A DNA stretch of 64,000 nucleotides. It comes from Candidatus Heimdallarchaeum aukensis. Its GTDB lineage: Archaea; Asgardarchaeota; Heimdallarchaeia; Heimdallarchaeales; Heimdallarchaeaceae. Positions 3,657 to 23,723 of this stretch are shown piece after piece. The notes under the pieces are model-generated. The model saw only the letters and a list, made by a program, of their open reading frames with translations. It was not told the DNA's origin and did no database searches. The stretch lies in assembly GCA_021513695.1 (NCBI GenBank), contig CP084166.1, positions 2,272,001 through 2,336,000 of the forward strand. Direction: 5' to 3'. Both the position numbers and the translations under genes were made by a program. Every line of letters starts with the position of its first letter. Within the stretch, counting starts at the first letter, position 1.

Positions 3657-4898
3657 ATGACTAAAAGTAATGAATATGTATTTTTTAAACTTGGACGGAA
3701 TAAGGAGTTGGCGGAAGTTGAAATTTCCACAATTCTTGAGAAAGTGGGAATAAATAGAAAAATTAGTTATTTTCAGTGGAAAGAATTTCTCTTTGTTAAA
3801 ATAGAAAAAAAAGAAGAACAGAAGGTTCTTCAAAAAATTAGAGAAACTGGAAGTATAGTAAAAGTTGGTAGTTGTTTTGCAAAATGTAATTCTGAGATTG
3901 AAGTTAAAAAAGTGATACCAGACAAAATTAATCAGATAATAGAAAAATTCTCAGGAAAAAAAGAAAAAATAAAATTTTCAATTAACCTTCAAATAGAGAA
4001 AGAAAAACAAAAATCTTTTTCTGAAATAGTGAAGAATGAGATACTAAAAATTGCAAAAGATAAAAGGGTAGAAGTGAAGATAATTCCAAAAAAAGGATAT
4101 TCACTAGAACTTAGCCCTTACCAGTATCACAAAGAAAATATGCCAAAAAGAGGTGTAGAATTAATTATTTTTGGTATAAAGTCAAAGTTGTATCTTGGAG
4201 AAACAAAATGGGTAACAAATCCATTCTTTGACATAAAACTTGATGAAGGACGGCCAGAACGATTATTTACACATGGGACATCAATAAAAATGGCTCGTTC
4301 ATTAATTAATCTCACAAATATCAAGAAAGGTTGTAAAATAGTAGATCCTTTTTCAGGAACAGGAACTCTATTGATTGTAGGATTGTTACAAGGTTATGAT
4401 GTTTTGGGTTTTGAAAAAGATCCGAGATGTGTTAGAGTTGCTAAAACAAATATACGTTGGGCAGTTGATAAATACAAACTTGAGCGAAGTTGGAAAATAT
4501 ACAAGAATGATGCCAGGGATATGCATAAAATAATTAGTGAAAAAGTTGATGCAGTTGTAACAGAACCATATTTAGGGCCATTTCTAAAAACTCTTCCTGA
4601 TTTAGAAGAAGGAAAAAAAATAATCCATGAACTTGAAAAGTTATATGCTAAAGTTTTATATTCGTGTAGTCAAATCTTGAAAGATGATTCTAGAGTAGTC
4701 ATAATCTTTCCTTTTTATGAATATCCAGACAAAACTAAACTTTCAATTAATTTAGAACGTGTAATAAATGGTTTATCGTTAGAACTAGTAGAAAAGACTC
4801 TTCACTTTAATGTTAGTTTTCCTATCAGCATCGGAAGAGAACATAATATTATCTCAAGACAAATTGTTATACTAAAGAAAAATAGTATGAAACAATAA
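3657..4898 (+). CDS. putative RNA (guanine-N2)-methyltransferase, Trm11/UPF0020-like
   Basis: SAM motif I IVDPFSGTGTLL and catalytic-type motif VVTEPYLG (variant of D/NPPY), with a long N-terminal extension that could be THUMP-like. Substrate not determinable. Confidence 0.5.
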   Translation: MTKSNEYVFFKLGRNKELAEVEISTILEKVGINRKISYFQWKEFLFVKIEKKEEQKVLQKIRETGSIVKVGSCFAKCNSEIEVKKVIPDKINQIIEKFSGKKEKIKFSINLQIEKEKQKSFSEIVKNEILKIAKDKRVEVKIIPKKGYSLELSPYQYHKENMPKRGVELIIFGIKSKLYLGETKWVTNPFFDIKLDEGRPERLFTHGTSIKMARSLINLTNIKKGCKIVDPFSGTGTLLIVGLLQGYDVLGFEKDPRCVRVAKTNIRWAVDKYKLERSWKIYKNDARDMHKIISEKVDAVVTEPYLGPFLKTLPDLEEGKKIIHELEKLYAKVLYSCSQILKDDSRVVIIFPFYEYPDKTKLSINLERVINGLSLELVEKTLHFNVSFPISIGREHNIISRQIVILKKNSMKQ

Positions 4899-17426: not shown

Positions 17427-18062
17427 TTACATCCTGATGTTCTTTTGGATAATTTCTTGCATAATTTTTGAGGTTGATTTTCCTGGAACATATTGATTTA
17501 ATCTGATTATCTTTATATGTTCTAATCTATTCTCTTTTAATCTATTCTTTAGATCTTCTTCATTGAATTTTTGGTCATAACCTAAAGCTATAATATCTGG
17601 CATTATCTGCTTTACTGTTAAAATGAAATCTTCTTCATTTCCAATAACTGCCACATCTACATCTTTTATGTGGGCTATTACTTGTGCTCGATCCTTTTGC
17701 GAATTTGTTGGTTCGCGTTTTTTTAATTTCCTAACATTATTATCTGTAGTTATAACTACAACAAGCACATCCCCTAGTAACTTTGCCTGTTTAAGGGTAA
17801 AAATATGCCCAATGTGAATGAGGTCAAATACTCCCCCAGTCATAACTACTGAAATTTGTTTCCTCCCAAATTCTGTCAACGATAAATCATTTTCGTCTTG
17901 TCTTGCCAAAGAACCATTTCTTATTAATTCGTTAACAGTTTCTTGGATAATCTCTACAGGCAGTTCTAATCTTCGAGCAAGGTTTATACTATTCGTCTTT
18001 CTTTTTACTAATATGTCACAATAAGCATGTCTTAGAATCAAATTATCAATTGAGCCTGTCAT
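17427..18062 (-). CDS. ribL: FAD synthetase RibL-type cytidylyltransferase-fold enzyme with N-terminal winged-helix domain
   Basis: GGVFDLIHIGHI (HxGH) nucleotidyltransferase core in the C-terminal ~140 aa. Extra ~70-aa N-terminus (INLARRLELPVEIIQETVNELIRNGSL) looks like wHTH. Confidence 0.65.
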   Translation of the reverse strand: MTGSIDNLILRHAYCDILVKRKTNSINLARRLELPVEIIQETVNELIRNGSLARQDENDLSLTEFGRKQISVVMTGGVFDLIHIGHIFTLKQAKLLGDVLVVVITTDNNVRKLKKREPTNSQKDRAQVIAHIKDVDVAVIGNEEDFILTVKQIMPDIIALGYDQKFNEEDLKNRLKENRLEHIKIIRLNQYVPGKSTSKIMQEIIQKNIRM

Positions 18063-18068
18063 CTTTTA

Positions 18069-18761
18069 TCAACTTTTTTTTAATGAATATCGAATTATTA
18101 TTTCGTCTCCGTCCTTCAAGTTAAATTTTTCCCTAATATTAATGTCACTTACAATTTCTGCTATATTTTTTCCATAATGCGTTCTTCTTGGAACAATAAT
18201 TGCAGCTTTTTCATCAGAGTCAAATAGTTTAACTGAATAGCATAACACATCTCCAAAACTTCTTCCTTCTTCTTTAAAGCCAGTTATTATCTTTGGAAAT
18301 GATCCTCTAATAAGATCTAATTTCTCGACATCATTAGGGTCTATTCTTACATTTAGTGTTCCAGGGTAAGGGACAAAGCCTAGTGTCTTTTTGAAACTTT
18401 TTACATAACTTGGTTGAGACATATAATATTTTCCTTCTCCAAATCCAGTAAAAACTAATCCACGCAACACAAGTTCTGTTTTATCAGGGTGGATAGCTTT
18501 TTCTAGCTCAAATCGAAGGTTATGTAGTGTCTCAATACCCTTATCAGTTAACTGTGCATTAGAACCTCTAGGGCCTGATTCCCATAAAATAAAATCCATT
18601 GCTGCCAGTTTCAATAAGTATCTTGACGCACTTTGTTGAGACATATTGAATACTTTAGCAACTTCTGTTGTAGTAATCTCCACTTTATGATCGATTGCAT
18701 GCTTTTGTGCTATATATATTAGTAATCCAATCTCTCGATTTGATAAATGAAAAATGTTCAC
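18069..18761 (-). CDS. ribK: CTP-dependent riboflavin kinase fused to N-terminal wHTH (RbkR-like)
   Basis: C-terminal GLVFTGFGEGKYYMSQPSY...PYPGTLNVRI matches the archaeal riboflavin kinase fold. N-terminal TTTEVAKVFNMSQQSASRYLLKL is HTH-like. Confidence 0.75.
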   Translation of the reverse strand: MNIFHLSNREIGLLIYIAQKHAIDHKVEITTTEVAKVFNMSQQSASRYLLKLAAMDFILWESGPRGSNAQLTDKGIETLHNLRFELEKAIHPDKTELVLRGLVFTGFGEGKYYMSQPSYVKSFKKTLGFVPYPGTLNVRIDPNDVEKLDLIRGSFPKIITGFKEEGRSFGDVLCYSVKLFDSDEKAAIIVPRRTHYGKNIAEIVSDINIREKFNLKDGDEIIIRYSLKKS

Positions 18762-19024
18762 GAGTTATCAAAAACATAGATATTTGTACTTTCTTAAATT
18801 TTTCAGTTAATCAACTTAATTTTTTTGCATTTTTTTAATCAATTTTGCTCTCACGGACTTTTAAAGGGGTAGAACTGGTCTTTTATTGTACCATAGTAGG
18901 CGGTTGAGTGCCATACAAAAATAATTAGTTGCTTTTATGTTATCTCCTTCTTTTCATCAAAAGTATATTTTTTTGTAATTCGAATAAAAACCTTTAAATA
19001 TCCAGTTAGAAACTGTATAATGGG

Positions 19025-19050
19025 GACTTACATTTTTATGTAAGTCTTTT
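19025..19050 (+). terminator. perfect 9-bp hairpin followed by T4 (terminator-like or regulatory)
   Basis: gacttacat-tttt-atgtaagtc then tttt. Lies 24 nt upstream of the ATG at 19074. Confidence 0.3.
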
Positions 19051-19073
19051 ACATCTGATTGGAGTGAAGAAGG

Positions 19074-19208
19074 ATGTCTCGAAAAGAATCAGTGAAAAAA
19101 ATAGATGAGGAAGTAAAGAAATTGAAAGAGAAATTAGAAAAAGATGGAAAGAAAAGTGTTTCGTCTAGAGAATGGGTGAATTACGAAACTTTCAGTATTA
19201 TTTTTTAG
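19074..19208 (+). CDS. possible small basic coiled-coil ORF (44 aa), not in track
   Basis: ATG preceded by ggagtgaagaagg. Translation MSRKESVKKIDEEVKKLKEKLEKDGKK.... Stop 11 nt before the next ATG. Coding status unproven. Confidence 0.3.
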   Translation: MSRKESVKKIDEEVKKLKEKLEKDGKKSVSSREWVNYETFSIIF

Positions 19209-19219
19209 GAGGAATAAAA

Positions 19220-19516
19220 ATGAAAGAAGAAAATTACAATTTTGATTTATGGTCTGAAGAGCTATCAAAATCAATAAGAAATTGGGTTGAAACAACAATA
19301 TGCAATTTACAGAATGACCTAAAACAATTCCATGGTCCATTGAAACAATTCTCACAAATTTCATCAGAAGGAATACAAACTGCATTGGTTAATTTTACAA
19401 CAAATCTAAAAGAAACAATAACAGAATTATCGGAAGATTTCTTAGATACAATAGAAGATGCTCTTGATGCTATTGAGGATGTAATGGAAGATCTAGAAGA
19501 AGCTGCTGAAGAATAA
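19220..19516 (+). CDS. small acidic hypothetical protein (98 aa)
   Basis: ATG at 19220 preceded by aggagg. The track's 19172 start is probably over-extended. C-terminus strongly acidic (EDALDAIEDVMEDLEEAAEE). Confidence 0.5.
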   Translation: MKEENYNFDLWSEELSKSIRNWVETTICNLQNDLKQFHGPLKQFSQISSEGIQTALVNFTTNLKETITELSEDFLDTIEDALDAIEDVMEDLEEAAEE

Positions 19517-19563
19517 AAAGAGAAATAAAAAAAAGTAAACGGTGAAAAAAATGGAAAGTAAAT

Positions 19564-19579
19564 ATATTGGAATGAATTT
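19564..19579 (+). repeat. direct repeat copy 1 (atattggaatgaattt), candidate operator
   Basis: 15/16 identical to 19624-19639. Lies in the 269-nt gap upstream of the ArsR-HTH gene. Confidence 0.4.
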
Positions 19580-19623
19580 GTTGAAAAGTTTATCAAACTT
19601 AGATAAGGGGATGAGAAAGAAAA

Positions 19624-19639
19624 ATATTGGAATGTATTT
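19624..19639 (+). repeat. direct repeat copy 2 (atattggaatgtattt), candidate operator
   Basis: See copy 1. The two copies are spaced 60 nt start to start. Confidence 0.4.
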
Positions 19640-19785
19640 CCTTTACTTTTCTTCTCTAAATAGAAATTATTTGTATAAGACTTTTAATTGTTTTGAATTA
19701 TCGTCAAACAAATTCTCAAATGATATAGCCTATCTTGTAGCAAATAATTCTTGGAATATCAGTTCTATAGAGAGGAGGATTTTCT

Positions 19786-20916
19786 ATGAGTGATGATGAT
19801 GAATATAAAATAAAGAAGGAATTGGAAGAATTAAAGAAAAGAAATCAAGAATTAGAGAAAATGATTAAAGCTGTATTTAACAGAATGGATAAGATAAATG
19901 GTTCAAGAAAAGAAGATGAAAAAACAGGTGATAATGTCTCTGATAAAATCGAAAAAAAAGAGATTGAAAAGCTTCTTGAAAAAGATCTCAGACGGTTAAA
20001 AAAGGAAAGAATCAGCAACCAACATCATAGACACCACTTCTCTCCTAATTTAGAAGAAAGAAGATTTGAACGTGATGAGAGAGTTCATTCGATACGAAGA
20101 GCTCCTTCTCCTCCTAGCGCTCCTTCTACACCTAGAACTCCTTCCACACCTAAAGAACCTTTACCTCCAGAACATATCGGTCGTCCTCCAAGAAAACACA
20201 TTTTATTGTCTAAAGAAGAGATTGCTCGAGCTAGAGAAGAGATTAAACGTGCAAAGGAAGAGCTTCGACGAGAAAGAGAACGAATGAGACTTGAAGCTAG
20301 AAGAAAAGCTTTAGAATCTGCAAAAAAATCTGATGTTAAGCCATTTATTTTTTCTAAAAATATCGATTTAGATGGTTTTGGAGAAACAATCTCAAAGTAC
20401 GTTGAAAGTATCCTAGAATCTGTTTCAAGAAATATCGAAGAAACTGTAAAAAGTGCTTTTTCAACAGAAAAATCTTCAACTGGTAGAATCTCTGGTTCCA
20501 ATTTTCCCACATCAAATAAAAAGGCTAGTAAATTTTCCTTTCCTTACGATTACAGGAGGATTCCTATAGACGAAATAGAATCCTACCTTGATGAGATATC
20601 TGAGCTTTTATCTGCAATAGGTGATAAGAATCGATTACATATCTTAAAATTGCTTGAACTTCAACCTGAATATCAAAAAGAGCTTTCAGAAAAAACTGGT
20701 CTTCGTGGTGGTACATTTAAGCATCATACAGACATTCTTGCAAAAAATGGACTTATTACACAAGAAACAGTAAGAGGAAGATATCTTATAACACAACTAG
20801 GGATTGAAGCTCTAAAGTTAGCAGAGATATTATATACCAGAAAACAGGACCTGTATTCTTCAGAAGATTCGTTAGATGATGAAGATGATGATGAAATAAA
20901 TATTGATATTAATTAG
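19786..20916 (+). CDS. coiled-coil / proline-rich / C-terminal ArsR-type wHTH fusion protein
   Basis: ggagg RBS. C-terminal NRLHILKLLELQPEYQKELSEKTGLRGGTFKHHTDILAKNGLI is ArsR/SmtB-like. Central APSPPSAPSTPRTPSTPKEPLPPE tract, flanking K/E/R coiled coil, acidic tail. Confidence 0.7.
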   Translation: MSDDDEYKIKKELEELKKRNQELEKMIKAVFNRMDKINGSRKEDEKTGDNVSDKIEKKEIEKLLEKDLRRLKKERISNQHHRHHFSPNLEERRFERDERVHSIRRAPSPPSAPSTPRTPSTPKEPLPPEHIGRPPRKHILLSKEEIARAREEIKRAKEELRRERERMRLEARRKALESAKKSDVKPFIFSKNIDLDGFGETISKYVESILESVSRNIEETVKSAFSTEKSSTGRISGSNFPTSNKKASKFSFPYDYRRIPIDEIESYLDEISELLSAIGDKNRLHILKLLELQPEYQKELSEKTGLRGGTFKHHTDILAKNGLITQETVRGRYLITQLGIEALKLAEILYTRKQDLYSSEDSLDDEDDDEINIDIN

Positions 20917-20930
20917 GGGGAGTTTAAAAA

Positions 20931-21593
20931 ATGACATTGAGTATTAGAAATTCTCCTATAAAAATTAAGAAAACAATTACGCACACCTTTAACAGTAAAC
21001 ATGTCAAATTAGAGTTGAAGAAGGGGTCTTTGCTCTTTCCTATTTTTGATGATTCTAACGATGTTCAAGTGGGTTGGCTGTTCTCTGGAACACTTACTGT
21101 TTTTGGTGATTTAATTGTCCACACTAATGATGGAGCTGCAGGAAAAATCGTTTCACAACAATACTCTAATAGTGTTTTTATGCCTGTAGTTCTTGAATTT
21201 TTATCTTTCAATGCTGTAAGAGAAATTAAACCTTTATCCGATTTTAGTTATTATACGAAGATTATAATGGACTTTAATAAAAAGATAATTTTCACTAATT
21301 TTATAAGAAAAACAGCACCCAACACCTTTATTTGGGGAGATAAACATGGGTCTTTTTGGATGATCTCAAAGGAAAAAACGTTTTTTGTGAATTTACCTGA
21401 AGTACTAGCGAGAGAAAGAGATGATGAATTACTATATCTAGATAAAAAGGGTTTCACTATAGTAAAAGACGGTGTTATTTCCTTCGAAACATCTACATTT
21501 TTATCTGGTCAAAGAATTAGGAAATTCATTTCTGAAATGTTGGATAATGTAAACATCGATACTTTTCTTAAAAATTTTAATATTACTTTTTGA
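20931..21593 (+). CDS. hypothetical protein (220 aa)
   Basis: Starts 14 nt after the previous stop, preceded by ggggga. No recognisable motif. Confidence 0.5.
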   Translation: MTLSIRNSPIKIKKTITHTFNSKHVKLELKKGSLLFPIFDDSNDVQVGWLFSGTLTVFGDLIVHTNDGAAGKIVSQQYSNSVFMPVVLEFLSFNAVREIKPLSDFSYYTKIIMDFNKKIIFTNFIRKTAPNTFIWGDKHGSFWMISKEKTFFVNLPEVLARERDDELLYLDKKGFTIVKDGVISFETSTFLSGQRIRKFISEMLDNVNIDTFLKNFNITF

Positions 21594-21682
21594 AATTTTT
21601 TTCTTTTTTTATTTAAATCATCGAAATTGAATATTTATACAAGAAAAAGTAATTAAGAAGAAATTGTTTTTGAACTTAATTT

Positions 21683-22117
21683 TCAAAACACTTGTTTTAG
21701 TTTTTCAGATATTTCATTTAGCAATTGTTCCAGTTCTAACAATTCCGTTTCTTTCTTTGCTTTTAATTGACTTTCAATATTTTCTTTGAATTGCTTTAGA
21801 TCCCTTAGCACTAAAATATATTGTTCAATTTTTTCTTTCTTTTTTTCTATTAGTTGGGGAATGTCTTCTATTGATGTAACTGAAGATAATAAACTAGGGT
21901 CATTTTTTTCTTTTGCTACTATCAAGTTGCTAATTTCATTATCCAATTTGTCAATATTTCGATTAGTTGCATATATTTTTTGATTGATCTTTATTAAAAT
22001 ATCTTGAGCTCTTTCGATTATAGGCGATTGCTCTTGCTTTTTTCTTAATAAAATAAGCAATAAGGCAATTGAAACTATTCCAATTACACATAAAATTATT
22101 ACTAAAATGGTTTGCAT
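21683..22117 (-). CDS. membrane-anchored coiled-coil protein
   Basis: N-terminal TM helix ILVIILCVIGIVSIALLLILL followed by K/E/L heptad-like sequence. Confidence 0.5.
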   Translation of the reverse strand: MQTILVIILCVIGIVSIALLLILLRKKQEQSPIIERAQDILIKINQKIYATNRNIDKLDNEISNLIVAKEKNDPSLLSSVTSIEDIPQLIEKKKEKIEQYILVLRDLKQFKENIESQLKAKKETELLELEQLLNEISEKLKQVF

Positions 22118-22259
22118 AAGTAAAAGAATCTGTACTAATAAAAAAAACTATTGAAATATAAATTTGATTTATTGATTGATTTACTGCTGAAAGTTCCTTT
22201 TGGCTTGTATCTTTGAAAAATAAATTTTTTTTATAAAAAAAAAAGAATAGTATTAACAG

Positions 22260-23723
22260 TTAGAGTTGTTTGTAATTGATAATTCTAACTGTTAGTGGTT
22301 TTTTTGAAATATCTGCAATTCTTGCACCAATTATAAGTGAGATTCCTTTTGTATGTGCAATTTCAAGTAATCTTTGAGTTACTACTCCATCCACTATCAT
22401 TGTTTGAGCTTTTTCAATATTTTGTAGTTTGTTAAAAATCTCTTTTACTGAACTTTTTAGCACAACATTATAATTTTCATCAAAAACAACAGCTTCAAAT
22501 TGTTGTTTTACATCATTTACAGCTTTTTCTAACTGTTCAGGAAGCCTTATTCTTCTGATTACGCGTCTGGTGTGTTGTTGTCTTCCGCTTTGTGGATAAC
22601 TTCTTTGTTGTCTTCCGCTTTGTGGATAACTTCTTTGTTGTCTTCCGCTTTGTGGATAACTTCTTTGTTGTCTTCCATTCTGTGGATAACTTCTCTGTGG
22701 ATGACTTATTTGCTCTTTTTGTGGAGTGTGTCTATGATGAATCTCTTGTTCGTCTCTTCTTATAGTTTTTGAGGGGCGGAGTTCATGTTCATCTCTTTTT
22801 TTGCGTTTTTTTGGTTCTCCCTTTCTCTTTGTTCTCTCCTTGAACTCTGCAACAGTGATACCTTTATCGCTTCCAGTCAAGAAAATTGCTTTTTCTATCG
22901 GAACAGCATTTTTTAGTGCTTCATGTATCTCTGCCTCTGTGAGGTCTTCTACTTCTTTTCCCACAGGTGCTCTAGCTACATAACTTACATTAGCAACTTG
23001 AATTAGTTCTTTTAAAATTAAGTCTGCTCCCCTATCTCCATCGAGAAAAGCTGTTACTGTTTTATTTTTTATCAATTCTAGTAGTTTTTTAGGTATACTT
23101 GTTCCATTAACTGCTATTGTATTATCTATTCCAACTTTCAATAGGTTTATTACGTCTGCTCTACCTTCTACTAGAATAACCTTAGACGATTTCTCAAACC
23201 CAGGTCCTGCGTTGAATTTTTCATCTGTTAAACGTATCACAGTAGATTCTTTTACTTTTTTTGATGATTCTTCAACTTCTCTTTGAATTGAAGCACTAAA
23301 AGGACTTACCTTTTCATCCCATTGTCTAATAATCTCTGCGGCCCGATTAACAATGGCTTTCCTCTTTTTTATTCTTACATCAGTTATCTCATTCAGTTTT
23401 ATTTCACAATTACAAGGTCCAACCCTATCTACTGTCTCAAGTGTTGCAGCTAAAATCGCTGTTTCAGTTCTTGATAGACTAGATGGGATGATAATTTCAC
23501 CTGTTGTTATTCCCTCTTTGCTTGATATTTTTACATCAATTCTTCCAATCTTTCCAGTTTTTTGTAATTCTCTAATATCTAATTCCTCACTGAGTAAACC
23601 ATCAGTTTGGCCATATAATGCCCCTATAATGTCTGGTTTTTCTACTATTCCAATTACTTTAAAATTTGCATGTATCTCATATTTTGTCGTTGCTGTATCG
23701 GTTTTAGCACCCATTTTCATCAT
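22260..23723 (-). CDS. dnaG: archaeal DnaG primase (TOPRIM) with internal repeat insertion
   Basis: N-terminal TKYEIHANFKVIGIVEKPDIIGALYGQTDGLL typical of archaeal DnaG. TOPRIM ILVEGRADVINL / DGDRGADLI. Basic and Q-rich insertion carries the QRSYPQSGRQ repeats. Confidence 0.88.
   Translation of the reverse strand: MMKMGAKTDTATTKYEIHANFKVIGIVEKPDIIGALYGQTDGLLSEELDIRELQKTGKIGRIDVKISSKEGITTGEIIIPSSLSRTETAILAATLETVDRVGPCNCEIKLNEITDVRIKKRKAIVNRAAEIIRQWDEKVSPFSASIQREVEESSKKVKESTVIRLTDEKFNAGPGFEKSSKVILVEGRADVINLLKVGIDNTIAVNGTSIPKKLLELIKNKTVTAFLDGDRGADLILKELIQVANVSYVARAPVGKEVEDLTEAEIHEALKNAVPIEKAIFLTGSDKGITVAEFKERTKRKGEPKKRKKRDEHELRPSKTIRRDEQEIHHRHTPQKEQISHPQRSYPQNGRQQRSYPQSGRQQRSYPQSGRQQRSYPQSGRQQHTRRVIRRIRLPEQLEKAVNDVKQQFEAVVFDENYNVVLKSSVKEIFNKLQNIEKAQTMIVDGVVTQRLLEIAHTKGISLIIGARIADISKKPLTVRIINYKQL
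22575..22706 (-). repeat. 30-bp in-frame tandem repeat, about 4.4 copies, inside dnaG
   Basis: Plus-strand unit ttgttgtcttccgctttgtggataacttct is identical at 22575, 22605 and 22635, variant at 22665, then a partial copy. Encodes QRSYPQ(S/N)GRQ. Confidence 0.95.

Follow-up and report, generated by a model that had tools for sequence, protein, structure and literature searches.

Within the window (the whole 64-kb stretch of Candidatus Heimdallarchaeum aukensis DNA analysed here) four co-oriented open reading frames of 44, 98, 376 and 220 aa lie on the + strand, each with a GGAGG/GGTGA-like ribosome-binding site. An earlier reading made without database searches (the sequence-only reading) had proposed these four ORFs, with a gap of 269 nt ahead of the 376-aa gene and the 220-aa gene following after 14 nt, and ORFs and gaps were both recovered as it described them. 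The dN/dS values relative to Candidatus Heimdallarchaeum endolithica were 0.24 (44 aa), 0.30 (98 aa), 0.13 (376 aa) and 0.07 (220 aa), and because these fall between 0.07 and 0.30 the four ORFs are real genes under purifying selection. The features of the locus are as follows.

18963-18978: distal operator-like site GTATA-N6-TGTAA, degenerate (2 mismatches in the left arm) and weak, ahead of the TATA-like box
18993-19000, + strand: TATA-like box TTTAAATA behind AAAACC; presumed promoter of the operon
19025-19046: proximal candidate operator, a perfect palindrome GACTTACA-TTTTTA-TGTAAGTC with the core TTACA-N6-TGTAA at 19028-19043
19049-19053: extra half-site TTACA, conserved in loci L001 and L005 (TTACATCTG)
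19074-19208, + strand: gene 1, 44-aa basic microprotein (pI 9.3) with a single charged helix and, at the C-terminus, a short hydrophobic tail
19220-19516, + strand: gene 2, 98-aa acidic all-helical protein (pI 4.1)
19542/19551-19793, + strand: possible fifth ORF, 83 aa from GTG (19542) or 80 aa from ATG (19551), filling the 269-nt gap
19564-19579 and 19624-19639, + strand: two 16-nt direct repeats (ATATTGGAATG), identical at 15/16 positions and 60 nt apart
19786-20916, + strand: gene 3, 376-aa protein with coiled-coil helices, Pro-rich tract, ArsR-fold winged helix and acidic tail
20098-20152, + strand: 18-nt tandem repeat, 3.1 copies (Tandem Repeats Finder), coding the (R/S)APS(T/P)P hexapeptides of the Pro-rich tract
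20566-20841, + strand: winged helix-turn-helix (wHTH) domain, residues 261-352 (Pfam HTH_5, homolog alignment, pLDDT >95)
20857-20913, + strand: acidic tail with the conserved C-terminal motif [IFY]-[DN]-[IV]-x-I-[EKD], here EINIDIN (C-termini of 85 homologs)
20931-21593, + strand: gene 4, 220-aa beta-rich partner ‘P220’, immediately downstream of the wHTH gene

Distribution and neighbourhood of the operon

The 376-aa protein has 85 protein homologs, nearly all from Asgard archaea. Related loci (n = 46, from GTDB contigs with one genome per species, i.e. about 46 species-level genomes) came nearly all from Heimdallarchaeota, with a few from Thor-, Kari-, Bathyarchaeia and Thermoprotei, and the closed H. 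endolithica genome contained only one match. The operon is chromosomal, apparently single-copy and found mainly in Heimdall-type Asgard archaea. Conservation of the gene neighbourhood had been named beforehand as the test able to refute the cluster, and in essentially all related loci the wHTH and 220-aa genes were neighbours: wherever the contig continues, the wHTH gene is in essentially every case followed directly by a P220 homolog (E 1e-5 to 1e-121), the loci of Kari-, Bathy- and Thermoprotei members included. The main Heimdall clade has kept both 5′ genes, the one for the 44-aa microprotein and the one for the acidic helical protein, and there the operon neighbourhood also keeps a C5 DNA methyltransferase and DnaG primase. 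The chromosomal site, beside housekeeping genes, is stable across many genomes.

Searches with Pfam and NCBIfam found no transporter, reductase or toxin gene within the operon, and an Rfam scan of 18700-22300 returned nothing relevant; a sigma-70 and terminator scan is uninformative for archaeal DNA. The PADLOC defence-system models left the 44-aa and 220-aa proteins unmatched and gave the other two weak coiled-coil/wHTH matches only. Our literature search found no paper on this family, operon or motif.

The winged-helix protein and the proteins encoded with it

In an AlphaFold2 model of the 376-aa protein helices span residues 3-39, 51-84, 136-181 and 195-225, with a disordered stretch (85-135) into which the QHHRHH patch and the Pro/Ser/Thr tract fall, followed by a winged helix at 261-350 (pLDDT >95) and the acidic tail; together with Pfam, the model bears out the succession of N-terminal helices, QHHRHH, Pro/Ser/Thr tract, wHTH and acidic tail previously proposed. 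The Pfam HTH_5 model (PF01022) passes marginally on residues 280-325 (23.4 bits against a cut-off of 22), and many homologs carry precomputed PF01022/PF12840 matches. The domain has the alpha1-alpha2-alpha3-alpha4(recognition)-beta-beta-alpha5 arrangement of the ArsR/SmtB type, and its ArsR signature LGDxNRLxIL can be aligned with 6j0e, a solved ArsR structure. A search of the PDB with family profiles gave only a marginal ArsR match (E 0.0024). Across the 85 homologs the wHTH is 50-80% identical to the query, with 17 invariant columns; the recognition helix reads GGTFKHHTDIL. The winged helix is of canonical ArsR/SmtB fold, and the earlier description of the cluster, as uncharacterised and with an ArsR-type winged helix at its centre, is supported.

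The 376-aa protein contains no Cys, like 96.5% of its family, and alpha5 (QLGIEALKLAEILYTRK) has neither His nor Asp; there is no His/Asp/Glu metal site in the last helix. Lacking both Cys and alpha5 ligands, the protein cannot sense metals or thiols, and a metal-sensing ArsR was rejected on these ligand residues; the NCBIfam metalloregulator model NF033788 (HTH_metalloreg) scored 27.5 bits against a cut-off of 55. The remark of the sequence-only reading that the protein is far more elaborate than a metal sensor was thus well founded. Its ‘eukaryote-like’ Pro/Ser/Thr tract fared less evenly. Pro-richness at the tract position is common to about 60 of 86 homologs, with PPLPPKPP nearly fixed there in one clade, and is a family feature by position and composition, but the exact tract of the window is a recent 18-nt tandem repeat whose sequence is not conserved. 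Its S-T-P motifs, considered as polo-box-type phospho-sites, are a coincidence, since they are absent from H. endolithica. Variants of the C-terminal motif among the 85 homologs include IDIDIED, EFDVKIK, EYDVSIK and EYEIGIE.

P220 has the lowest dN/dS of the four genes and an invariant motif of G48, G53, D60, G68 and G71, and belongs to no Pfam, NCBIfam or PADLOC family. A word-indexed homology search recovered only 2-4 proteins, and an exhaustive profile search only 25 representative clusters among 1.8 billion proteins; two long multi-stretch matches (P0099 and P0107) look spurious. Neither the family profile searched against PDB sequences nor a Foldseek comparison of the P220 model with the PDB returned anything (TM at most 0.25), and P220, as modelled, appears to have no convincing fold match in the PDB. 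Comparison with eukaryotic peptide-binding domains of the single-layer beta-sheet and polo-box kinds (the TCP G-box of CPAP/SAS-4, the polo boxes of Plk) gave generic beta-meander scores at 4-9% identity, from a moderate-confidence model built on 4 sequences. In one Kariarchaeota homolog of P220 a C-terminal extension matches the HMM of the acidic protein (E 0.0018), a suggestive Rosetta-stone link between the two.

Neither small 5′ protein gave anything above threshold in Pfam, NCBIfam or PADLOC, and the apolipoprotein, ZorA and baculovirus matches of the 98-aa protein are sub-threshold amphipathic-helix noise. In 27 loci the ORF that immediately precedes the wHTH gene is matched by the gene 2 HMM (E 1e-11 to 1e-29); gene 2 is absent from the second clade and from L006. 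Gene 1 has the family consensus ETLKxLDQEIRRLKxEL and its profile weakly matches the helix at the N-terminus of the 376-aa protein (hhalign probability 77%, for a biased charged helix); one might speculate that the microprotein is a paralogous decoy of that helix.

Promoter, repeats and a candidate operator

In the sequence-only reading the 269-nt gap would serve the 376-aa gene as promoter, and the two ATATTGGAATGNATTT repeats in it could be operators. The repeats do exist at 19564 and 19624, are the only copies within the window, and a 15/16 direct repeat arose in only 0.9% of shuffles of the gap; equally good repeats were present, however, in 4 of 237 real 269-nt windows of the same sequence, so that their significance is marginal and not clearly above chance. 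Neither copy is conserved in H. endolithica, the closest relative, although neighbouring blocks are, and being absent from the orthologous region they fail the conservation test. Most relatives, among them L005, L006, L007 and L008, moreover have no gap at all, the genes abutting, and in the window the repeats lie in frame (KYIGMNL / KNIGMYF) inside the possible fifth ORF, which is kept open. This ORF is open at the same length in H. endolithica behind a conserved GGTGA-N6-ATG, and only 0.5% of its simulated neutral descendants stay open; its dN/dS, however, is 0.66, its substitutions are flat over codon positions (24/22/22), it has no Pfam match, and it is missing from the four loci with abutting genes. 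It is probably coding and lineage-specific, and the gap is then not empty. With a far better conserved palindrome elsewhere, we reject the repeats as operators and regard a separate repeat-controlled promoter in the gap as very improbable, an interpretation largely refuted by its own conservation test. Taken as a whole, the earlier observation is partly confirmed: its ORFs, gaps, protein features and repeats are there, but the repeats are neither clearly above chance nor conserved in H. endolithica, and the gap is probably not empty.

The presumed promoter of the operon lies instead upstream of gene 1, where general knowledge of archaeal promoters would assign that role to the TATA-like box at 18993-19000. 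L001 and L005 both keep the block aaaCCTTTAAATA, to which GGTTTATATAT corresponds in other clades. About 24 nt separate the box from the proximal palindrome downstream of it, and 28 nt the palindrome from the first start codon. Its core TTACA-N6-TGTAA has one exact match in the 64-kb window (0.14 expected) and one each in L001, L002, L004/5, L006, L007 and L008, always upstream of gene 1. Related loci with the motif carry it once or twice ahead of the operon and nowhere else. In all, 24 exact sites were counted at -800 to -100, in 21 of 42 non-redundant loci, and the other 337 kb examined contained none; 1.7 would be expected over the whole. One-mismatch sites fill most of the remaining Asgard loci and are often paired 47-67 nt apart (16 nt in L029 and L032). 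The spacings have no clear periodicity, therefore helical phasing gives looping no support and was not used as an argument. The distal site of the window corresponds in position to O1, which many relatives have 47-67 nt ahead of the proximal site; additional half-sites were seen in all clades, and the order O1, TATA, O2, extra half-site, SD, ATG is kept in both clades.

The motif also follows the type of recognition helix. Carriers are the members with GGTFKHH(T/M)D, whereas the Thermoprotei and Hadarchaeota members have AGTLSSHLN and no motif, and L051 and L053 have ATATCT-N2-AGATAT in place of TTACA-N6-TGTAA. A conserved inverted repeat at the operon's own promoter, overlapping core promoter elements, is the arrangement of an autoregulated repressor. 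From this co-occurrence and co-variation the palindrome upstream of the first gene is likely a credible candidate binding site of the wHTH.

Regulatory model and alternatives

We consider it rather probable, on sequence evidence, that the locus is an operon repressed by one of its own products, a scaffold-like regulator of ArsR fold encoded together with its partner P220. The 376-aa protein would dimerise via the canonical ArsR helices and bind TTACA-N6-TGTAA, whose half-sites are centred 11 bp from each other, roughly one turn of the helix, and therefore face the same side of the DNA. Copies of the palindrome flank the TATA box of the operon's own promoter, and since the proximal copy (19025-19046) sits where transcription should start, its occupation would block RNA polymerase and repress the operon. 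The long N-terminal helices, the Pro-rich tract and the acidic C-terminal peptide may serve as interaction surfaces, with the co-encoded proteins, above all P220, supplying signal input or effector function. Running against autorepression are the restriction of exact sites to half of the loci, the 2 mismatches in the distal site of the window, and the NCBIfam metalloregulator score below its cut-off. The earlier verdict that no function can be inferred holds for the physiological role, but was too pessimistic with respect to the regulatory logic.

Since about 260 of its 376 residues model as non-DNA-binding helices and disorder, the protein might alternatively be mainly architectural, its wHTH anchoring it to DNA whilst the coiled coils, polyproline-type tract and acidic C-terminal peptide bridge components and P220 docks, with autoregulation secondary or absent. 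The recurrence of Pro-rich tracts at one position (with the nearly fixed PPLPPKPP), the conserved C-terminal peptide motif and the methyltransferase/DnaG neighbourhood of the main Heimdall clade would all suit such a tether; that neighbourhood is, however, absent from the second clade, the Pro-rich and acidic motifs have no identified partner, and a palindrome so specific, confined in 367 kb to the promoter of the operon itself, is more readily expected of a dedicated autoregulator than of an architectural protein acting genome-wide. We regard this reading as rather unlikely. Distinctly improbable in our estimation would be a eukaryote-style DNA-bound adaptor of Heimdall-type archaea, in which a sequence-specific wHTH, coiled-coil oligomerisation, a polyproline-II motif and an acidic-hydrophobic C-terminal peptide, together with a decoy-like microprotein and a dedicated peptide-binding P220, would link a DNA locus or gene expression to the Asgard cytoskeletal or protein-interaction machinery. 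Profilin, SH3 or WW-like domains are readers of polyproline-II motifs of this PPLPPKPP type; such an adaptor, if real, would represent prokaryotic short-linear-motif-based regulation on a transcription factor.

The palindrome itself could be read as a hairpin in the 5′ leader RNA affecting stability or translation, or as the site of an unrelated factor, with the wHTH of the operon regulating other targets. With a start about 25 nt after the TATA-like box it would be transcribed, and a 9-bp stem is possible in the window; yet the arms keep the sequence TTACA / TGTAA across lineages without compensatory changes, only 5-bp arms and a 6-nt spacer remain outside the window's lineage, equivalent sites also occur upstream of the TATA box, where they would be untranscribed, and the motif varies with the type of recognition helix in the co-encoded wHTH, which leaves this reading a small chance. 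Source annotations as ‘ArsR family transcriptional regulator’, weak NCBIfam metalloregulator and SdpR matches and PADLOC Csa3/CasR matches on the wHTH might point to a conventional ArsR/SmtB metal or metalloid sensor, or to a mobile defence or toxin-antitoxin module. The missing Cys and alpha5 ligands, an operon devoid of transporter, reductase or toxin genes and a stable chromosomal site by housekeeping genes make this close to negligible. A CRISPR-associated Csa3/CasR was itself rejected: TIGR01884 scored 15.8 against 60.2, the PADLOC matches span only helices and wHTH, and the N-terminus is helical or disordered in the model, with no CARF domain.

Among known systems, the ArsR/SmtB repressors (SmtB, CzrA, ArsR, NolR, BigR) share with the 376-aa protein the LGDxxRLxIL and xHHL signatures and a palindromic site at their own promoter, a likeness that suggests autorepression. 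The 376-aa protein differs from them in lacking metal or thiol ligand residues, in adding an N-terminal coiled-coil extension of about 260 aa with a Pro-rich disordered tract and an acidic tail with a conserved C-terminal peptide, and in the obligate adjacent partner of unfamiliar family. Phr, the Pyrococcus heat-shock regulator, combines an ArsR-like wHTH with a helical part and represses promoters, its own included, by binding just downstream of TATA; its site sequence and domain order are different, it has no P220-like partner, and its NCBIfam model (NF053602) scored 14.6 bits on the 376-aa protein against a cut-off of 320. The Sulfolobus chromatin protein Sso10a, of about 95 aa, has an N-terminal wHTH and a short antiparallel C-terminal coiled coil. 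A Pro-rich tract, an acidic tail and a partner operon are all missing from Sso10a, and a general chromatin protein of that kind is hard to square with the site specificity implied for the 376-aa protein. Bacterial phage-shock-type operons encode a PadR-type wHTH, a helical signalling protein and a beta-rich ‘Toastrack’ protein. By analogy only, the logic of a wHTH regulator, alpha-helical modules and a beta-rich protein in one operon may be similar, but none of 31 P220 homologs matched the Toastrack/DUF4097/DUF2154 Pfam models at E of 0.1 or better, and membrane segments are lacking.

In the literature searched the operon is undescribed; it is conserved across the archaeal lineage usually placed closest to eukaryotes. 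It joins a familiar DNA-binding fold to features rare in prokaryotic regulators, namely long coiled coils, a conserved polyproline-type motif, an acidic tail with its conserved end peptide, a microprotein resembling the N-terminal helix of the regulator and an obligate partner whose fold is unmatched in the PDB. Were it merely an autoregulated repressor, it would be a useful but modest addition to archaeal transcription-factor diversity. As the recognition helix is almost invariant, a binding result would carry over to dozens of uncultured genomes and might delimit a Heimdallarchaeial regulon, and if the Pro-rich or acidic motifs turn out to dock partners such as Heimdall profilin, the family would bear on how early linear-motif signalling arose.

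A conserved operon centred on a wHTH-P220 gene pair

The operon comprises four genes on the forward strand, each with a GGAGG/GGTGA-type ribosome-binding site 5' of its start codon:

19074-19208, + strand: gene 1, encoding a 44-aa protein
19220-19516, + strand: gene 2, encoding an acidic 98-aa protein
19786-20916, + strand: gene 3, encoding the 376-aa winged helix-turn-helix (wHTH) protein
20098-20152: 18-nt tandem repeat (3.1 copies) encoding the Pro-rich tract of the 376-aa protein
20931-21593, + strand: gene 4, encoding a 220-aa protein (P220)

The window is AT-rich (GC ~31%), its genes have their best protein matches in Heimdallarchaeaceae, and the closed genome of a close relative, the Asgard archaeon Candidatus Heimdallarchaeum endolithica (CP084167.1, locus L001), is collinear with it across the entire neighbourhood. 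Relative to H. endolithica, dN/dS was 0.24, 0.30, 0.13 and 0.07 for the 44-aa, 98-aa, 376-aa and 220-aa ORFs respectively (dS 0.5-1.0), indicating that all four are under purifying selection and hence are real genes.

Gene-context look-ups, together with scanning one genome for each species, yielded 46 loci, nearly all from Heimdallarchaeota with a few from Thor-, Kari- and Bathyarchaeia, Thermoprotei and Hadarchaeota; the scan returned a single match in the closed H. endolithica genome. In essentially all loci that continue beyond the wHTH gene a P220 homologue lies directly 3' of it (profile, E 1e-5 to 1e-121), an adjacency extending to Thermoprotei and Kariarchaeota, which makes the wHTH-P220 pair the conserved core. 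The main Heimdall clade carries two extra genes 5' of this pair, a microprotein of ~43 aa (consensus ETLKxLDQEIRRLKxEL) and an acidic helical protein, the latter located by HMM matches in 27 loci, whilst the sole upstream gene of the second clade encodes a basic microprotein of ~31 aa. The main-clade neighbourhood is stable, running from a convergent C5 DNA methyltransferase through TyrRS to DnaG primase, of which the window and H. endolithica retain DnaG only. Both this stability and the PADLOC result speak against a mobile or defence element; PADLOC, like Pfam and NCBIfam, gave no family for P220 either singly or over 31 homologues.

In the main-clade loci L004-L032 (~20 MAGs) the gene directly 3' of P220 is the convergent C5 cytosine DNA methyltransferase (PF00145), within ~20-40 nt of the P220 stop codon, and TyrRS/TrpRS and DnaG come next. 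The methyltransferase and tRNA synthetase are absent from the window and H. endolithica, which have a 144-aa TM-plus-coiled-coil ORF there instead (21683-22117, minus strand). The DnaG gene of the window (22260-23723, minus strand, Toprim domain) contains a 30-nt tandem repeat (22575-22712, 4.1 copies, 95% match) that encodes QQRSYPQSGR units within a C-terminal insert of low complexity, and the copy number may differ between the two genomes since DnaG is 487 aa long in the window versus 472 aa in its H. endolithica ortholog.

The 376-aa protein and P220

An AlphaFold2 model of the 376-aa protein (alignment of 85 sequences) bears out the elaborate architecture that the sequence-only reading had proposed for this ArsR-HTH protein. 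It has long helices at residues 3-39, 51-84, 136-181 and 195-225, disordered segments at 85-135 (His patch and Pro/Ser/Thr tract) and 226-255, a winged helix predicted with very high confidence at 261-350, its final helix reaching residue 366, and an acidic tail. Across the family, conservation is highest in the wHTH (17 invariant columns and 50-80% identity to the query among 85 homologues). It extends to helix 201-225, to the N-terminal helix (KELEELKKRNQELE) and to a peptide [IFY]-[DN]-[IV]-x-I-[EKD] at the extreme C-terminus, after the acidic run; in the window, where the C-terminal peptide is DDEDDDEINIDIN, this motif reads EINIDIN, and in other homologues IDIDIED, EFDVKIK or EYDVSIK.

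The DNA-binding domain has a fold of the ArsR/SmtB class. A role as a metal sensor is nevertheless ruled out, since the protein contains no cysteine (as is true of 96.5% of its family), every Asp/His/Glu ligand of the alpha5 metal site is missing from its last helix and it scores below the NCBIfam metalloregulator cut-off. The 376-aa protein has an ArsR fold but is no metalloregulator, nor is it Phr, Csa3 or Sso10a.

The Pro/Ser/Thr tract had been singled out as eukaryote-like and unusual in archaea. Its exact sequence, in the window the product of the 18-nt tandem repeat, is not conserved within the window's own clade in the family alignment, but Pro-richness at this position is a family trait, with at least six Pro in a 25-aa window in ~60 of 86 homologues versus 3% Pro overall. 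In one clade of homologues [ML]PPLPPKPP or MPPMPPMPP is nearly fixed, a type of motif that profilin, class II SH3 domains and group II WW domains recognise. We consider it quite improbable that the 376-aa protein is a eukaryote-like adaptor sitting on DNA and acting through short linear motifs.

A search of 1.8 billion proteins yielded only 25 representative clusters of P220, and a search by sequence found no relative in the PDB. The invariant residues G48, G53, D60, G68 and G71 map to one long beta hairpin (motif QxGW..G......ADLxVHTxxGAxG), and a model built from four sequences (pLDDT 73.7) has two halves, each a beta-meander plus helix, whose likeness to peptide-binding beta domains is a lead only. 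The Kariarchaeota locus L050 encodes a P220 homologue of 383 aa (1840-2991) with a C-terminal extension comprising Gly/Met/Asn-rich low complexity, FDFD repeats and an acidic-protein-like segment (E 0.0018), and a DIDVDF-type terminus like the tail motif of the wHTH regulator.

A candidate operator at the operon promoter

Two elements lie upstream of the first operon gene:

18993-19000: TATA-like box TTTAAATA, ~24 nt 5' of the palindrome
19025-19046: perfect palindrome GACTTACA-TTTTTA-TGTAAGTC, the proximal candidate operator

An extra TTACA half-site lies 3' of the palindrome. The 64-kb window has a single copy of the core, TTACA-N6-TGTAA (0.14 expected), and L001, L002, L004/5, L006, L007 and L008 contain exactly one copy each, always 5' of the first operon gene. 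In a set of 47 non-redundant loci (367 kb), 42 of them with enough upstream sequence, there were 24 exact sites at -800 to -100, in 21 of the 42 loci (1.7 expected in total), and none in the remaining 337 kb. With one mismatch allowed most other Asgard loci gain sites, often two, 47-67 nt apart, and both clades keep the same layout of distal site, TATA box, proximal site, extra half-site, ribosome-binding site and start codon. An RNA hairpin could also account for a palindrome, but the arms hold their sequence and do not co-vary, and some sites lie 5' of the TATA box, which favours protein-DNA recognition. Members with the recognition helix GGTFKHH(T/M)D carry TTACA-N6-TGTAA, whilst those of Thermoprotei and Hadarchaeota have the helix AGTLSSHLN and lack the motif.

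In two uncultured Thermoprotei loci with the latter helix (L051 and L053), ATATCT-N2-AGATAT beside the start codon, immediately 5' of a short wHTH homologue, may be a clade-specific operator. The upstream intergenic region is 536 nt in L001 versus ~312-315 nt in the window, and the extra ~120 nt (roughly 3950-4080, locus coordinates), with the inverted repeats AGTACTTCCG...CGGAAGTACT at its ends, resembles a MITE-type insertion that separates the degenerate distal site from the TATA-like box. In the window this ~312-nt region is shared with two divergent genes (17427-18761, minus strand), encoding a 230-aa fusion of an N-terminal wHTH with a CTP-dependent riboflavin kinase and a 211-aa RibL/FAD-synthetase-type cytidylyltransferase-like protein with an N-terminal HTH-like segment, beyond which lies a DUF4147/MOFRL glycerate-kinase-like gene.

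Operators had previously been proposed elsewhere, at two 16-nt direct repeats (19564-19579 and 19624-19639) in the 269-nt gap between the 98-aa and 376-aa genes. The repeats are present in the window but are not credible operators: both copies are altered in H. endolithica though adjacent blocks are kept, 4 of 237 real windows of equal size contain a repeat just as good, and in L005, L006, L007 and L008 the genes abut, with no promoter gap 5' of the 376-aa gene. This holds whether or not the ORF in the gap (83 aa from GTG, 80 aa from ATG; GGTGA-N6-ATG conserved) is a gene. The ORF is open at identical length in H. endolithica, and in simulations of neutral descent only 0.5% of copies stayed open; on the other hand, its dN/dS is 0.66 and its substitutions are spread evenly over the three codon positions (24/22/22). 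We put the odds that it is a fast-evolving, lineage-specific small gene at roughly even. The most conserved gap block (19645-19706, TTTTCTTCTCTAAATAG.A.TTATTTGTAT.AGACTTTTAATTGTTTTGAA) is ~93% identical to H. endolithica versus 73% for the whole ORF, and could be an internal promoter/regulatory element or the conserved core of a small protein (FSSLN..YLY.TFNCFEL).

Proposed mechanism

The operon is conserved, the ArsR-fold DNA-binding domain has a near-invariant recognition helix and no sensor residues, and a conserved palindrome flanks the core promoter. The domain architecture, the obligate P220 partner and the candidate operator appear to be undescribed in the literature searched. We infer that a dimer of the 376-aa protein binds TTACA-N6-TGTAA, whose half-sites are 11 bp from centre to centre, roughly one turn of the helix, and so lie on the same DNA face. 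Since the proximal site coincides with the position where transcription is expected to start, its occupation would repress the operon, which is how archaeal repressors such as Phr, MDR1 and LrpA act. The microprotein helix resembles the N-terminal helix of the 376-aa regulator (hhalign probability 77%) and this likeness, with the acidic-protein-like extension of the Kariarchaeota P220 homologue, weakly hints at physical links. The coiled coils, Pro-rich tract and acidic C-terminal peptide would be interaction surfaces, and P220, possibly with the microprotein and acidic protein, would supply the signal or perform the function.
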